Assembly: GCA_963752285.1 (NCBI GenBank)
Contig: CAVVXN010000005.1
Coordinates: 832,001 to 896,000, forward strand
Direction of reading: 5' to 3'
Origin: an uncultured Planctomycetota bacterium
GTDB taxonomy: Bacteria; Planctomycetota; PLA2; JAEUHO01
Length of the DNA stretch: 64,000 nt
How positions within the stretch are numbered: the first letter of the stretch is position 1; each line of letters starts with the position of its first letter. Both the position numbers and the translations under genes were made by a program. Under the pieces are notes generated by a model that saw only the letters and a program-made list of their open reading frames with translations, had not been told where the DNA came from and did not search any database. This document shows positions 14,436 to 44,100 of the stretch, piece by piece.

Positions 14436-14708
14436 ATGCGGCAGAGAGGCACCTCTGGCGTCGCGGTTCTGGGCATCGCCTTCGTGATCGCAGTTCTCGC
14501 GGCCGCGGCTTGGATGGTGTACCGCCCCCGCTGGGAGTACCGGGTCGTGACGTTCAGCGACAGCGCCTGGGGGTCCGGCAACGGACGCCAGGGGAGCCCG
14601 GACGAGCTCGGGCGCGAAGGCTGGGAGATCGTCTCTGCCCGTCGCGCGCGTGGCGACTTCGACTTGATGGGCTACGAGTGCATCCTTCGGCGACGGGTGT
14701 TCCCGTAG
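14436..14708 (+). CDS. Small membrane-anchored DUF4177-like protein
   Basis: TM helix, then WEYRVV...ELGREGWEIVS...ILRR pattern typical of DUF4177. Confidence 0.7.
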   Translation: MRQRGTSGVAVLGIAFVIAVLAAAAWMVYRPRWEYRVVTFSDSAWGSGNGRQGSPDELGREGWEIVSARRARGDFDLMGYECILRRRVFP

Positions 14709-15034
14709 CCCGCCGCAAAGATCGAGGACTGCTGCGGGCGGGTCCGCGACACGGCGAGCGCCGAGCCGCCGCGCGCGTGGACGGGCGTTCGTTCCCGCTG
14801 GACCCGATCCCCTGGGAGCCACCGGCGCGATTCCTCCGGGATCCCGACGTCGAGATCCTCGAGGAAGACCGCCCGCCGAGCGCGGAGTGACCCGCCGCTC
14901 GTGCGATCTCGTTCGTGCGGCGCTGGCGGACGGCTACTCCCAGGGACCGTACCGGAACGGTCGGTGCCACGCACGCCGCCGCGCCAAGCGCCTCGACAGG
15001 CCGGATTCGTGCGGCCTGAACGTGGATCAGAAAC

Positions 15035-15051
15035 AGCCCGTCACGCGGGCT
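15035..15051 (-). promoter_or_regulatory. Candidate bacterial SECIS hairpin (could also act as a terminator)
   Basis: Minus strand AGCCCG-CGTGA-CGGGCT: perfect 6-bp stem with a GU-containing loop beginning 19 nt after the in-frame UGA at 15065-15067. Confidence 0.55.
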
Positions 15052-15913
15052 TGCGCTTGACGCGTCACCCCACCGGCTTCGTGTCGTTCGCGTTCGTCGG
15101 GAGGTTCTTCCCGGACCGCACGGCCTGGATCGCGTCGCGCAGGTAGTCCTTGCGCTCCGCGCCCTTGAGCTCGTCCTGCGGGTCGTTGTCCACGGCGCCG
15201 CGGTAGCGGAGGTGGTGGTCGGCGTCCAGGAGGAAGAGGTGCGGCGTGTTCGTGGCGCCGAAGAGATCGGAGACCTTCTGGTCGGGGTCCATCACGACCT
15301 TCCAGCGGTAGCCCGTGAGGTCCTCGTAGTCCGTGACGTGTCCGGGCTTGTCCGGGTAGTCGCCGGCCACGGCGAGCAGGCGCACGCCGGTGTCGCCGAG
15401 GATCGACTGGACGCGCTCGTCGTACACGCCCTTGCACATCGGGCAGCGGGGCGACCAGACCATCACGAGGATCGGCGCCTTCGCCGCGCCTTCGATCCAC
15501 GTGGCGAGGTCGCGGAGCGTCTTCGCCCCGTCGCGTGTCTCGTCACCGGGCACCAGACCGAAGCCCTGGCCGACGCGGGCGACGAAGTCGGCTCGGAGGT
15601 CCGAATCGAGCTCCCCGTCCGACTGCAGGCCCGGGAGGGCGTCGATCGCGGTGTCGAGCGTCACCGGCTTCCCGTCCGCCTTCGCGCGGGCCGCCTCGAG
15701 CACCCAGGACTCGGCCTTCGGAGCGGTGATCTCGAGGTCGGAGAGCGAGACGTTCCTCCCGTCCACGCCAGGACCCGAGAAGCCCTGGACCAGGTCCCCG
15801 ATCGCGTAGGGCCCACTCGCCTCGGCGGCGCCGCCGGATCGGGCGGCGAGGGCCAGGGCGAACGCGGCGGCGGGCACCAGGAGCCAGGCGAGACGGAGCG
15901 GGGCAGCGCGCAT
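15041..15913 (-). CDS. Exported redoxin/AhpC-TSA-like thioredoxin-fold protein, probable selenoprotein (TGA 15065-15067 read as Sec; ends at 15065 if not)
   Basis: Signal peptide; CPMC motif; GATNTPHLFLLD..LRYRGAVDN; C-terminus TKPVG-TGA-RVKRKPA-stop, where this family normally has GCxxK. Confidence 0.85.
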
Positions 15914-16014
15914 ACGGGTCCTCCTCAGGCGACGACCCCCGATGGTACGGGCCGCGGAGAGGGGCTCACTTCGAAGTCCAAAGCCCCGTGTTCATACCGC
16001 CGGAGCGACCCGGG

Positions 16015-17211
16015 TCAGGCGTCGGCCTGGAGGAGGAGGCCGGAGAGGTAGCGGCCCTCCGGGGCCGCCAGGAGCACGGGGTGGTCGGGTCCGGCGGACA
16101 GCTCCCGGAGCACGCGGAGGGGGCGGCGACACTCGCGCGCCGCGGAGGCGACCATCTCCGCGAGCCGAGACGCACCCAATGCGTGGGTGCACGAGAAGGT
16201 CGCCAGCAGGCCGTGCGGAGCGAGCCGGGTGAGCGCCTGCACGGTCAGGTCGCGCCACATCTTCGTCCCGGCCGCCGTGCGGGTCCGTCGCGGCAGGAGG
16301 TTCGGCGGGTCGAGCACGATCACGTCGAACACGCGATCCTCGTCCTTCAGCGCGCGGAGCGCCACGCGCACGTCCTCCACGCGGGTGGCCATCCGCGCGT
16401 CCACGCCGTTTCGCGCGGCGTTGTGGAGCGCGGTCTCGGCCTGGCGGGCCGACGACTCGACGAGGAGCGCCGATCGCGCGCCGGACCGGAGCGCCTGGAG
16501 CGAGAACCCGCCCGTACCCGCGAAGAGGTCCAGCACGTCGCGGCCCTTCGCGAGCGCGGCGACGACCCGTCGGTTCTCCCGCTGGTCGGCGTAGTGCCCG
16601 GTCTTCTGACCGTGGCGTGGGTCGATCTCGAGCTCCATGCCCTCCTCGCGTGCGATGACGCGCTCCGGCGCGGGCTCGCCCGCCTCGAAGGAGACGTCGG
16701 TCTCGAGGATCCCTTCCTCCGCCTCGAAGCCCCCCGCGCGCGCCACGAGCGAGCGCGCGCCCGACGACGAGAGGAGCAGGTCGGACAGCGCTCCGCGGCG
16801 CCGGTGCATCGCGGCCGTCGCGAACACCGCGACCAGGACGTCGCCCGCGCGGTCCACCACGAGCCCCGGCAGCCCGTCTCCCTCGGCGTGCACCAGACGG
16901 TAGGCGTTCGTCTCTGCGGGATCGGGAAACAGGGCGCGGCGCAGCGCGACGGCCCGCTCGACCCGATCTCGGAGCACGTCGAGCACGGGCGCGGCGCCCA
17001 GCGTCCGGTCGAAGAGGCGCACGCGGATCGCCGAGCCGCCCGAGAAGAAGCCGCGCCCGATCTCGCGGCCCTCGGCGTCGGCGACACGCACCACGTCCGG
17101 CTCGTCCGCGAGGGGGACGCCGTGGACCTCGGCGACGGACGACGCGTGGACCCAGGGGTGACCCGCCCACAGCGGACGAGCCCGGCCCTTCTGGACGACC
17201 ACGGTGCGCAT
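16015..17211 (-). CDS. rlmI: RlmI/RlmK-like class I SAM-dependent rRNA m5C methyltransferase
   Basis: GHPWV PUA domain, EGDGLPGLVVD, GQKTGHYADQRENR, VLDLFAGTGGF, LDPP, TFSC and DHPV...PEGRYL motifs. Confidence 0.88.
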   Translation of the reverse strand: MRTVVVQKGRARPLWAGHPWVHASSVAEVHGVPLADEPDVVRVADAEGREIGRGFFSGGSAIRVRLFDRTLGAAPVLDVLRDRVERAVALRRALFPDPAETNAYRLVHAEGDGLPGLVVDRAGDVLVAVFATAAMHRRRGALSDLLLSSSGARSLVARAGGFEAEEGILETDVSFEAGEPAPERVIAREEGMELEIDPRHGQKTGHYADQRENRRVVAALAKGRDVLDLFAGTGGFSLQALRSGARSALLVESSARQAETALHNAARNGVDARMATRVEDVRVALRALKDEDRVFDVIVLDPPNLLPRRTRTAAGTKMWRDLTVQALTRLAPHGLLATFSCTHALGASRLAEMVASAARECRRPLRVLRELSAGPDHPVLLAAPEGRYLSGLLLQADA

Positions 17212-17255: not shown

Positions 17256-17732
17256 TCAGCGCATCGCGTCGCGCATGCGGCGCCGGTCGTCCTTCTCGCG
17301 CTCGCGCGCCCGGTGGTCGGCTTTGCGGCGGCCCTGGGCGAGCGCGAGCTCCACCTTCACCCGGACGCCCTTGAAGTAGAGCGACAGCGGGATCATCGTC
17401 GTGCCTGCCGCCTCGAGGCCCTCCTCGATCGTCCTCAGCTCGCGGCGGTGGACCAGGCACTTGCGGGGGCGGTCGGGCTCGTGGCCGAAGCTCGCGGCCT
17501 GCGAGAGCGGAGGGATGTGCACCCCGTGGAGCCAGAGCTCGTCGTCGCGCAGGCGCGCATAGCCCTCGCGGATCGTGGCCCCGTTCTGTCGGAGCGAGCG
17601 CACCTCGCTGCCCTGGAGCACGAGGCCGGCCTCGACCTTGCCGAGCAGCAGGTAGTCGTGCCGCGCCCGGCGGTTCGTCGCCAGGACGCGACGACCGCCC
17701 TTCTCGTCGGACGCGGGGCTCGACTTCGTCAT
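17256..17732 (-). CDS. smpB: SsrA-binding protein SmpB
   Basis: NRRARHDY..EAGLVLQGSEVRSLR, HEPDRPRKCLVHRREL, PLSLYFK..KVELALAQGRRKADHR. Confidence 0.96.
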   Translation of the reverse strand: MTKSSPASDEKGGRRVLATNRRARHDYLLLGKVEAGLVLQGSEVRSLRQNGATIREGYARLRDDELWLHGVHIPPLSQAASFGHEPDRPRKCLVHRRELRTIEEGLEAAGTTMIPLSLYFKGVRVKVELALAQGRRKADHRAREREKDDRRRMRDAMR

Positions 17733-18969: not shown

Positions 18970-19167
18970 GGCTCCGGCGCTGCGCGGGGATCGCGGGGAG
19001 GGCGGGCGCGGGCGTGGGGGGCGGGCTCCCCCGCTGCGCGGGGATCGCGGGGGCGCGGCGGGCGGGCTCCCCCGCTGCGCGGGGATCGCGCGGGCGCCGC
19101 GGGCGGGCTCCCCCGCTGCGCGGGGATCGCGGGGGCGCCGCGGGCGGGCTCCCCCGCTGCGCGGGGA
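18970..19167. repeat. 41-bp-period palindromic tandem repeat (4 copies plus 1 degenerate)
   Basis: Core GCGGGCTCCCCCGCTGCGCGGGGA(TCGCG) at 19021, 19062, 19103 and 19144, degenerate copy at about 18970; 12-nt near-identical linkers. Confidence 0.9.
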
Positions 19168-19186
19168 CGGGGGGACGCGGAGCGTA

Positions 19187-19972
19187 GTGGAGGCGGGGGA
19201 GGCTCCCCCGCGGGGTGGGGCGCGCGGGCGAATGGGGCGACGGCGTACGGAGGCGGGGGGTGGGCGTTTGGCCCTTGGGCGCGGGGGAGCATTACTTCTC
19301 TCCCCCCGCCTCCTGGATCGGGGCTCGCGGTCGAGCGGGGCTTGGCGTACGTCCGGACCTTGTGATCGACGGTGGGTGGTGGGGATGGAGGCGGGGGAGG
19401 CTCCCCCGCGGGGTGGGGCGCGCGGGCGAATGGGGCGACGGCGTACGGAGGCGGGGCGTGGGCGTTTGGCCCTTGGGCGCGGGGGAGCATTACTTCTCTC
19501 CCCCCGCCTCTTGCATCGGGGCTCGCGGCCGAGCGGGGCTTGGCGTACGTCCGGACCTTGTGATCGACGGTGGGTGGTGGAGATGGAGGCGGGGGAGGCT
19601 CCCCCGCGGGGTGGGGCGCGCGGGCGAATGGGGCGACGGCGTACGGAGGCGGGGCGTGGGCGTTTGGCCCTTGGGCGCGGGGGAGCATTACTTCTCTCCC
19701 CCCGCCTCTTGCATCGGGGCTCGCGGTCGAGCGGGGCTTGGCGTACGGACGGGCCTTGTGATCGACGGTGGGTGGTGGAGATGGAGGCGGGGGAGGCTCC
19801 CCCGCGGGGTGGGGCGCGCGGGCGAATGGGGCGACGGCGTACGGAGGCGGGGGGTGGGCGTTTGGCCCTTGGGCGCGGGGGAGCATTACTTCTCTCCCCC
19901 CGCCTCCTGGATCGGGGCTCGCGGTCGAGCGGGGCTTGGCGTACGGACGGGCCTTGAGATCGACGGTGGGTG
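19187..19972 (-). repeat. tmRNA-linked tandem repeat: four ~198-bp units, each carrying a copy of the ssrA 3' end
   Basis: Units start (plus strand) at 19187, 19385, 19583 and 19781 (last 192 bp). Each begins with TGGAGGCGGGGG, as does the ssrA 3' end at 19974. Confidence 0.95.
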
Positions 19973-20330
19973 GTGGAGGCGGGGGGAATTGCACCCCCGT
20001 CCCGAGATGGGTGAGCGGGCGTCACTACGCGCGTAGTCCGAGGTTTGAGGTCTCGCTCTCGGGGACGCCCTCGGACGGGCTTCCCTTCGGGCCAGCGGGT
20101 GAAGTCTCGCTGCCCCTTCGACCCGCGGCGAAGGGGCGGCCAGCCTGCGTTATGGCGGCCGTACGTCCCCCGCAGACAGAGGGACGGGGCCGCGCCACCT
20201 GACTAGGCGGCGAGAGCGTAGTTGCTGTTGGCAACTGAGGTTCCAGGGGAGGTTGTTGACGAGGTCCGACCCTGGGTACCCCGGCGCGCGACGCAAACCC
20301 ACCGACATCCGGTCGATTCTGTTCGCCCCC
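19971..20330 (-). ncRNA. ssrA: tmRNA (transfer-messenger RNA); tag peptide ANSNYALAA at 20203-20232
   Basis: 5' GGGGGCGAACAGAATCGAC; 3' GGACGGGGGTGCAATTCCCCCCGCCTCCACCA; internal GCC AAC AGC AAC TAC GCT CTC GCC GCC TAG; smpB 2.2 kb away. Confidence 0.96.
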
Positions 20331-41119: not shown

Positions 41120-44100
41120 TCAGCGACCCGCGGTCGGCGAGAGCGTCGCCTGGACGTCGGTCGTGCGGCCGCCCTCGATCACGACCTCCGCCTCGAGCGG
41201 CGCGTACGAGGGGCCGGCGTCCACGCGCACGAGGTAGGCGCCCGGCGCGAGGTCGTCCACGACGAGCGCGCCGGTGGACGGGAGCCGTCCCCCGAAGGCG
41301 GAGAGGCGGACCGGCTCGAGCCGCGCCCGACGCTCCACCGGCTCCCCGCTCACGGCGCGGACGACGTCCACGCGCGCACGTGGCAGGGGATCCCGCCCCG
41401 TCCCGCGCACGACGAGTCGGAGCGCGCCCGCCATGGGCAGGCGGATCTGGGCGGTGGTGGTCTGCCCCTCGACCACGCGGACGAGCGCGGGCGGAGGACG
41501 ACCGAAGCCCGCGGCCTCGACGCGCAGGCGGTGCGGACCCGTCGGCACGCCTCGGATCTCCAGCCGGCCCGTCGGGGGCGTGGCGTAGGCCACCGCGTTC
41601 AGCGCCCGACCCACCTCGTCCTCGATCCACACGCGCGCGCCACCGACGGGGCGTCCGTCCGTGTCGGTCACCAACGCCACGAGGACGCCGCCGGCGCCCA
41701 GCACGATCTCGACGTCCTGCTCGGCGCCCGCCTCCCGCGCGACGGCGGCCACGACGGGGCCGGGGCCGAGGCCGGGCGCGTACGCCGTGAGCTCGTACGG
41801 GCCGACCGGCAGGCCGGGGATCAGGAACGCGCCCTCGGGGTCCGTGACCCCGCGCGCGCCCGCCACCTCGCCGGTCCCGCCGCGAGGCGACGCGACGACG
41901 GTCGCTCCCGACACGCCGCGGCCCGAGGGCAGCACCACGCGCCCTCGCACCCGCCCGCCCCACACCTCGAGGTCGAGCGAGAGCCGGTCCATTTCCCGCA
42001 CGAAGACCGGGTGGCGGCGGCGGACGACCCCGTCGAGCACCTCCACCTCGTAGGCGCCCTCGGGCAGCTCGTCGAACGCGAACGCGCCGCTGCCGTCCGT
42101 CGCGACCTCGAGCTGGAACGGCGTCTCGTCCGCGTGGGCGGGGACCGACACGAGCCCGACGCGCGCGTCGGGCACCGCGCGGCCGTCCCTCGTCACGTGA
42201 CCTCCCACCTCGCCGCGCCCGTCCGGCTGCAGGTCGAGGTGGACCGTTCCCTCGGCCGGCACGTCCACGAGCGCCGTCACGTCGCGTACGACGTCGAATC
42301 CCTCGAGCGTCGCGCGCCACGGTCCCGCGGACACGTGCTCGATCGTGAACCGTCCCTCCGCGTCGGTGGTCGCCTCGCGCGCGTCCGGTCCCTCGTCCAC
42401 GGGCTCGAGCACGACGCGCGCGCCGTCGAGCCCGGCGCCGGTCTTCGCCACGACGCGGCCGTCCAGCGTCGCGCCGCCACCGAGGACGACGTCGGGCACG
42501 ACGATCGTCTCGCCCTCGCCCACGCGCACGAACGACGTCCAGGTCGCACGGTCCCGGGCCCGTACCTCGACCCGCCAGCCTCCTGGCGCGATCTCGTCGA
42601 ACGCGAACCCGCCCTCCGCGCCCGTCGTCACCTCCACCTCGCCGTCGGGCCCGCCCGCCGCGTCCCCCTTCGCCCGCAGCCGGACGAGGCGGACGCCGGC
42701 GCCGAGGTACGGCGCGCCGGTCGGGTAGAGCACCGTCCCCACGACGCGCCCGCCCGCCGCGGGCAGCGTGAGGACCAGCCCGTCCACGTCGCTCTCGTCC
42801 ACCCGCGCGGGCACGGGGCCGGAGTCCACGAGACCGCGGACGAGGCGCACGGCGTACGGTCCCGGAGGGAGGTCGTCGAACGCGAACGAGGGGTTCGGCT
42901 CGCTCGTGGGGAGCGGACGGTCGTCCACCACCTCCCAGTGCCACGACCCGTCCTCGGGGTCGGGGAGCGCGGCCTCGAGCGTCACGTGCGCAGCGGGCAG
43001 GCCGAGCGCGAGATCCTCCGCCCGACCGTGCACGTGGCGCCGCGGCGGGACCACGATCGAGAGCGCTTCGGTCTCGCCCGGCACCGCGCCCGCGTACGCG
43101 GGCGACGGCACGGGCGTGCGCGCGCCGGGGTCCCAGAGCGAGAGGTCGGTCGGCACCGCGGGCAGGCCCACGAGCCGGAACGCGCCGGCGTCGTCGGTCC
43201 GTGCGGTCGCCTGGCCCTTCGCGCCGCGCGCGTGCGCCTCGACCACCCAGCCCCGCGCGGGCTTCCCTCCCTCGAACACGACGGTGCCGTCGAGCGTCGG
43301 CGCCGGCCGCATCTCGGGCCGCCACACCGTCCCCGAGCCCGAGCGGGGCCACACGACCAGGTCCTCGACGGACGCCCAGTCGCCGCCGCCCGCGACGACC
43401 TTCACGTCGAAGGGCGGCAGGTCCACGAGGGAGAGCCGGCCCTCCGCGTCCGTGACGCCCTTCGGCGCCCGGCCGAGCACGCGGTCCGACGGGCGCGACA
43501 CGGGGATCGCGGTCACCTGGACGCCGCGCGCCGGCTTCCCGCTCGAGACGTGCGCCTCTACCTCGAGCGTCCATCCGCGAGCGAGCTGGATCGGGGGCAC
43601 GTCAGTCGCATGCCCGCGCAACACGTCGAACGGGGGCGTGACCGCCGAGGCGTAGCCGTCGGCTTTCACCTCGACGCGCCACGCGAGGTCGGGCCGCACG
43701 GGCGCGAGCGTGAAGCGGCCCTCGGCGTCCGTCTTGCCGACCGGCTCGGGCGGCGCGCCGTCCGGCGGGAGCGGCTGCGACGCGGCGACGAGGGCGCGCA
43801 CGCGCGCCCCCGCGACCGGGCGCTCGTCGGGCCCCATCACCCTCCCCGAGACGCTCGTCGTCCGGATGCCGTACCAGGCGTGGAGCTCCACGTCCCGGCC
43901 CGCCTCGACCTCGAAGCGCTCGGGCGCAGGGTCGAAGAACCAGTCGGGTTCCGCCGGCCGCGCCTCCCAGACGCCGGCCGGAAGGTCGTCCGCCTCGAGG
44001 AAGCCCCGGTCGTCGGTCGTCCGCGTGGGTCCCTCTCCCGGAGGCGCGCTGCCGCCGGGGAGCAGGGACAGGGTCACGCGTCGTCCGGGCCACCCGGGTC

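Follow-up and report, generated by a model that had tools for sequence, protein, structure and literature searches.

The minus strand of the window (the whole stretch of Planctomycetota DNA that was analysed, 64,000 nucleotides) appears to encode a selenoprotein of 290 amino acids, a predicted exported redoxin of the PRX_like1/PrxL type in which the TGA at codon 283 would be decoded as selenocysteine (Sec), helped by a GU-loop hairpin 19 nt downstream, and in which Cys157 and Sec283 likely constitute the redox pair. We assign this reading a probability of about 0.93. Judging from sequence features, conservation and the machinery genes of the genome, Sec insertion at residue 283 is very likely. 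By itself the hairpin is no more than chance could give, whereas chance does not explain what the relatives show jointly, namely a TGA confined to the cysteine column, a coded tail under conservation and a hairpin with a GU loop.

The in-frame TGA, the cysteine column and the coded tail

Under translation table 11, the listed open reading frame starts from an ATG at 15913, preceded at 6 nt by a Shine-Dalgarno-like GAGGAGG (15920..15926, minus strand, read directly from the sequence), and closes after 282 residues at TKPVG-TGA (15067-15065). Past this TGA the frame continues as CGC GTC AAG CGC AAG CCC GCG, a coded tail of RVKRKPA (15044..15064), up to the true stop, a second TGA (15043-15041), which brings the coding sequence (15041..15913) to 290 residues. 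The sequence-only reading had described the TKPVG-TGA ending, the continuation, the second TGA and a hairpin at 19 nt, all of which are present on the minus strand, a strand that it left unstated. It had also expected standard annotation to truncate the product, and the entry for this gene in the protein collection is indeed the 282-residue form. The N-terminus carries a predicted signal peptide (approximately residues 1-32, 15818..15913), with a basic start and a hydrophobic stretch common to 21/21 orthologues, so export of the redoxin to the periplasm is predicted from sequence.

The in-frame TGA (15065..15067) falls on the cysteine of a conserved G-C-x-[IV]-K ending. With the TGA read as a cysteine-like residue, G-U-RVK aligns with G-C-TIK, G-C-SIK and G-C-NIK of the solved homologues 2cvb, 2ywi and 3u5r. 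Genomes of the window's own family supplied 22 full-length orthologous loci; at this column 19 of them have TGA and two TGC, the remaining locus is cut by a contig end, and neither TAA nor TAG occurs there in any of the 22. Cysteine thus fills the column in three structures and two orthologues, as anticipated by the proposal of Sec at a C-terminal redox cysteine. Marks by which selenoproteins are recognised are found together: a UGA aligned with a conserved cysteine of homologues, no UAA or UAG in its place, and coding that continues beyond it.

This continuation is visible in the tail itself. In the 19 TGA orthologues, the real stops lie 4-25 codons past the column (13 TAG, five TGA, one TAA), and the residues after the TGA follow the pattern x-[VI]-K-R without exception, with V or I at position 2, K at position 3 and R at position 4 in 19/19. 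The arginine at position 4 is written with four synonymous codons (CGC 13 times, CGA, CGG and CGT twice each), which, together with the conservation of the tail, points to a coding constraint at the protein level. A looser pattern, x-[VI]-K-[RYWK] after a TGA, occurs in 1/1981 TGA-ended reading frames of the genome, namely in the gene itself.

The column was followed further in a phylum sample in which 210/301 genomes hold a family member (507 matches). Scoring covered 34 TGA-containing loci, fetched from among the matches listed (best 150 of 507) and chosen for an internal TGA, plus 22 loci returned by the search and 80 loci from named genomes. In the phylum set, the same column carries TGA in 34 loci from 14 families, a number to be read with the choice of the fetched loci for TGA in mind; the scored phylum and named rows otherwise give cysteine in 92, another sense codon in six and one row that did not align, again with no TAA or TAG at the column. 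Fourteen further regions comprised seven with TGA at the column, five whose match includes a TAG and which stop past the column, and two that fall short of it. The sequence-only reading had held that homologues with TAA or TAG here would count against Sec; none was encountered in any locus checked. Full-length matches among the named genomes numbered three (50, 48 and 37% identity), all of them Planctomycetota records. A sub-clade (L163, L164, L100) has phenylalanine at the column (G-F-R/K-I), and its redox box contains C-P-H.

Probable redox pair and function, and a predicted ACP-fold insert

The protein matches the Pfam AhpC-TSA and Redoxin families, and its closest structures, both by sequence and by model fold, are 2cvb, 2ywi and 3u5r, which we take to be members of cd02969. 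By sequence it is a PRX_like1/PrxL-type redoxin and not a true AhpC peroxiredoxin, a refinement of the earlier assignment to an AhpC/TSA-like family. The peroxidatic T/S-x-x-C motif of AhpC/Prx proteins is absent; the box reads WSPRCPMC, of thioredoxin type, with the motif C157-P-M-C160 at 15434..15445. Throughout 21 orthologues Cys157, P224, G282 and column 283 are invariant, and Cys160 is a cysteine in 7/21, which makes Cys157 and Sec283 the likely redox pair. The invariant T223-P224 loop (15242..15247) presumably corresponds to the cis-Pro position of the thioredoxin fold. In the structural model (pLDDT 92), residues 222-223 and 283-284 both form short strands, which would fit a tail docked against the cis-Pro loop, close to Cys157.

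These features lead us to propose that Cys157 and Sec283 act as a couple in a thiol-disulfide oxidoreductase of the periplasm, and a reductive activity of this kind, as opposed to that of a classical peroxiredoxin, is the most likely function. In this reading the hairpin would recruit SelB with its Sec-tRNA for decoding of the UGA, and the ribosome would then translate another seven codons before terminating at the second UGA, within the hairpin loop. After export, the C-terminal tail is expected to adjoin the active-site loop, where Sec283 and Cys157 would alternate between a selenenylsulfide and the reduced form. The pair would be re-reduced by the DsbD/ScsB-type membrane protein of the genome, as a presumed electron donor, a single DsbD-type gene being found elsewhere in the genome and not adjoining the redoxin gene. 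According to the available portion of Cho et al. 2012 (PMC3322552), the Caulobacter PrxL, also of cd02969, is exported, forms a disulfide between two distant cysteines and is kept reduced by ScsB, with peroxidase activity described there as not detectable. The C-terminal cysteine of 2ywi is treated as resolving-like in the corresponding part of Pawlowski et al. 2010 (PMC3091736).

A second feature, overlooked by the sequence-only reading, is a predicted four-helix insert inside the redoxin domain (residues 61-144, 15482..15733), kept in 21/21 orthologues, absent from the wider family and, among the matches listed, matched solely in genomes of the window's own family. In a comparison of a profile of the 21 inserts with PDB sequences, acyl carrier proteins (ACPs) or ACP-containing complexes take the top 37 of 41 matches (best E 0.002), and the profile aligns to the genome's own ACP with E 3e-4 and a probability of 38%. 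The insert model (pLDDT 94.9) superimposes on ACP chains with TM of approximately 0.7-0.8, the Foldseek matches listed being ACPs or ACP-containing complexes. Individual matches are weak, at best E 0.002 by sequence and 0.018 by Foldseek, and Pfam PP-binding matches just 2/21 inserts, weakly. The position of the carrier serine, Ser104 here, is a serine in this protein alone (1/21), which argues that most members have the ACP fold but do not act as carriers. The insert is thus predicted, partly from the model, to fold like an acyl carrier protein, mostly without the carrier serine, and it would serve as a non-covalent docking or substrate-binding module and not as a phosphopantetheine carrier. 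The combination of an ACP-fold insert with an exported redoxin was not found in the searches run. Two proteins of approximately 1000 residues, P0052 and P0056, carry the insert-redoxin unit C-terminally, behind N-termini that look TIR-like or Ser/Thr-kinase-like by eye, and both end at the glycine preceding the Cys/Sec column.

Sec often serves peroxide reduction, and ACP folds bind acyl chains non-covalently in a helical pocket. Together with the AhpC-TSA match and the insert kept in every orthologue, this lends some weight to a different function for a genuine selenoprotein, namely that of a selenium-dependent peroxidase or of a lipid-directed enzyme whose insert binds an acyl chain. We consider it unlikely, however, given the missing T/S-x-x-C motif, the lack of detectable peroxidase activity in the Caulobacter PrxL, as far as the available text of PMC3322552 goes, and the neighbours (an rRNA-methyltransferase-like gene upstream in 13/22 loci), which hint at no lipid metabolism. 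More doubtful still is an elaboration in which a serine-less ACP fold, recruited from fatty-acid synthesis, would hold either an acyl chain or some acylated target in the envelope beside Cys157/Sec283, making the protein a lipid-directed periplasmic selenoprotein and its kinase- or TIR-fused relatives extra-membrane redox or lipid sensors.

As for the neighbourhood, in 13/22 loci the gene immediately upstream, in the same orientation, encodes a SAM-dependent methyltransferase (PUA plus Methyltrans_SAM; 16015-17200, minus strand, in the window), and next to it is a reading frame (17256-17732, no Pfam match) that we take to be smpB-like. Several long direct repeats occur in the reading-frame translations of 19000-20000, beside an ARAGORN tmRNA call at 19971-20170.

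Hairpin, termination and the selenocysteine machinery

The predicted bacterial SECIS (bSECIS) hairpin spans 15035..15051 on the minus strand, with a 6-bp stem (AGCCCG at 15051-15046, CGGGCT at 15040-15035) and a 5-nt loop CGUGA (15045-15041 as CGTGA) that includes the second TGA (15041..15043) and begins 19 nt past the Sec codon. A published bSECIS rule, as worded in the part of PMC13188914 available, asks for a loop of 3-9 nt with G in its first two positions, a spacing of 16-37 nt and an MFE <= -7.5. The hairpin fits it according to our own pattern script, against a background of 1032/1981 ordinary TGA stops of the genome (52%) that satisfy a loose form of the rule. Its 48-nt fold is not unusually stable (z = -0.30).

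A GU-loop pattern of our own was also scored: a Watson-Crick stem of at least 4 bp and a loop of 3-6 nt that begins with GT in the first positions, at a distance of 12-45 nt from the codon. It is found in 21/21 TGA loci against 0/8 cysteine loci, a circular result for the former since the pattern was defined after inspecting these first 21 loci; in the genome at large it occurs after 302/1981 ordinary TGA stops and 490/3504 cysteine codons, and with stems of at least 6 bp in 16/21 TGA loci against 53/1981 ordinary stops. On independent loci, from which repeats of earlier ones had been removed (two TGA and four cysteine loci in the phylum set, three TGA loci in the named set), it is present at 26/32 TGA loci against 10/88 cysteine loci, and 5/7 further TGA loci have it as well. 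Of the TGA loci that miss it (6/32 and 2/7), several have a long hairpin whose loop contains a G or whose stem includes a wobble pair, and in some orthologues the best hairpin lies 37-43 nt away. Stem sequences vary while pairing is kept (AGCCCG/CGGGCT, AGTCCG/CGGACT, AGTCCT/AGGACT), and both cysteine orthologues are without a GU-loop hairpin. The earlier proposal of a SECIS element stands as regards the rule and the enrichment of GU loops at TGA loci, and is weakened by the z of -0.30 and the terminator-like score of the hairpin in this one genome.

This terminator-like score speaks for taking the TGA as a true stop, with the protein ending at Gly282 without a C-terminal cysteine and the hairpin acting as an intrinsic terminator. 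Together with the GTTTCTGATC tail, the hairpin is the sole terminator-like site in 14600-16200; TGA is the commonest stop of the genome (1981/2643 long reading frames); the protein would keep its full CxxC; and, of 27 insert-bearing, full-length database representatives (260-300 aa), 20 end at this glycine, six go on as G-C and one as G-T (by eye). Nevertheless, a tail of at least five T follows in just 1/21 TGA loci, and 5/21 hairpins lie wholly within the coded tail. The tail is conserved at the protein level with synonymous variation, the loci checked hold no TAA or TAG at the column, the five matches that contain a TAG stop past it, and truncation would leave a single cysteine because most orthologues lack the second cysteine of the motif. 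A true stop is accordingly very improbable, and the decoding of codon 283 as Sec is preferred.

For this decoding the genome (89% complete, 73% GC) appears fully equipped, and the four genes whose presence the sequence-only reading had wanted checked are all there: selA (507 bits), selB (317 bits) and selD (356 bits), each over its cut-off, and the tRNA-Sec gene selC (70 bits, cut-off 47). Its selD carries an in-frame TGA of its own at the GAGG-x-AAK site, downstream of which no GU-loop hairpin of the same type was found; a TlpA-like UxxC gene of the same genome does have such a hairpin after its TGA. In the genomes with a TGA orthologue, selA was found in 18/19, and in further TGA-bearing genomes in 33/34 against 221/301 in the phylum sample, a comparison cross-read by eye among kin that are not independent; the two selA-negative genomes, one in each set, both have selB over the cut-off. 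The use of TGA as the main stop shows that the genetic code of this genome has not been reassigned. Read-through that bypasses the Sec machinery and inserts cysteine or tryptophan, through near-cognate or reassigned decoding, would agree with the hairpin missing after selD and with a tail whose conservation speaks for read-through and not for the identity of the residue, yet it is scarcely credible in a genome with TGA as its main stop and complete machinery, in a family whose hairpin is tied to the TGA forms and lost in the cysteine forms, and with selA or selB in every TGA-bearing genome checked.

Possible Sec/Cys switching, other candidates and known systems

In a tree that FastTree built from 113 core domains (duplicates removed, one in three named loci used), the insert-bearing proteins form one clade (0.995) with both cysteine members nested among TGA members. 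The tree needs 14 changes between Sec and non-Sec overall, against a shuffled minimum of 29, and its deep branches are weakly supported; this suggests, at the level of sequence, that Sec/Cys switching was repeated.

Four other genes of the genome (G000) contain an in-frame TGA of interest. A TlpA/redoxin-like gene (C5, minus strand, TGA at 252206; L209:207-1214) has its TGA in a U-V-P-C box, followed at 21 nt by a GTC-loop hairpin, and is likely a UxxC selenoprotein of known type. A CusB/HlyD-type efflux adaptor (C5, plus strand, TGA at 148343; L211:145-1458) ends G-TGA-C-V-E-K-stop, has a GGTC-loop hairpin with a 6-bp stem 20 nt away, and is on this sequence evidence a candidate C-terminal selenoprotein of a family absent from the 2026 table of selenoprotein families (PMC13188914). 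A predicted exported HMA-domain protein (C2, minus strand, TGA at 357831; L212:347-964), with G-M-G-TGA-G-P-C at the metal-binding CxxC and a weak hairpin, is a candidate UxxC selenoprotein. Finally, a 514-residue protein without a Pfam match (C4, plus strand, TGA at 42005; L210:273-1814) has its TGA in D-P-E-V-G-x-S-I, a hairpin at 23 nt and an earlier similar stretch with cysteine (D-P-E-L-A-C), and is a candidate for an unlisted selenoprotein.

A C-terminal redoxin Sec site is absent from the inventory of 119 families in Table 1 of the 2026 review (PMC13188914), where redoxin-type selenoproteins all have Sec in the N-terminal box; the available parts of the Lokiarchaeota PrxL paper (PMC4989117) and of a 2022 review place it likewise. 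No NCBIfam selenoprotein model matches the protein, and a text search of the deep-Sep, BSepDB and SelCysML texts returned no mention, the BSepDB family table and Haft and Tolstoy 2025 standing outside the comparison. Catalogues appear to miss the site because few residues follow the UGA. TGA stands here in 19 orthologues and, within the phylum sample, in another 34 loci spread over 14 families; the catalogues would gain a selenoprotein site. Sec would also identify the C-terminal cysteine of PRX_like1/PrxL proteins as catalytic and so render the mechanism of the family testable. Since database entries (20/27 representatives) are without the residue, clones made from such entries would be inactive at the site.

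Compared with PRX_like1 (cd02969) proteins such as the Caulobacter crescentus PrxL CC0220 and the structures 2cvb, 2ywo, 2ywi and 3u5r, the present protein shares the thioredoxin-fold redoxin domain, the active-site cysteine toward the N-terminus, the distant C-terminal G-C-x-[IV]-K position and export (here predicted), and differs in having TGA/Sec in place of the C-terminal cysteine and an 84-residue ACP-fold insert before the active-site strand. With the acyl carrier proteins (PF00550), this insert shares the four-helix fold and the sequence pattern of helices II-IV, although here it is placed in a predicted exported redoxin and has the carrier serine in 1/21 members. Relative to the bSECIS consensus, the element differs in that its loop holds the stop codon and one half of its stem falls within the 3' untranslated region. 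Among listed selenoproteins (Prx-like UxxC/UxxU PF00578, Redoxin UxxC PF08534, UGC-TlpA cd02966, AhpC/TSA UxxS cd02970, Prx TxxU and the Lokiarchaeota PrxL), the Pfam clan, the UGA at a conserved cysteine and the downstream SECIS are shared, whereas here the CPMC box keeps its cysteine and the predicted Sec codon stands 126 residues downstream, seven from the end of the protein.
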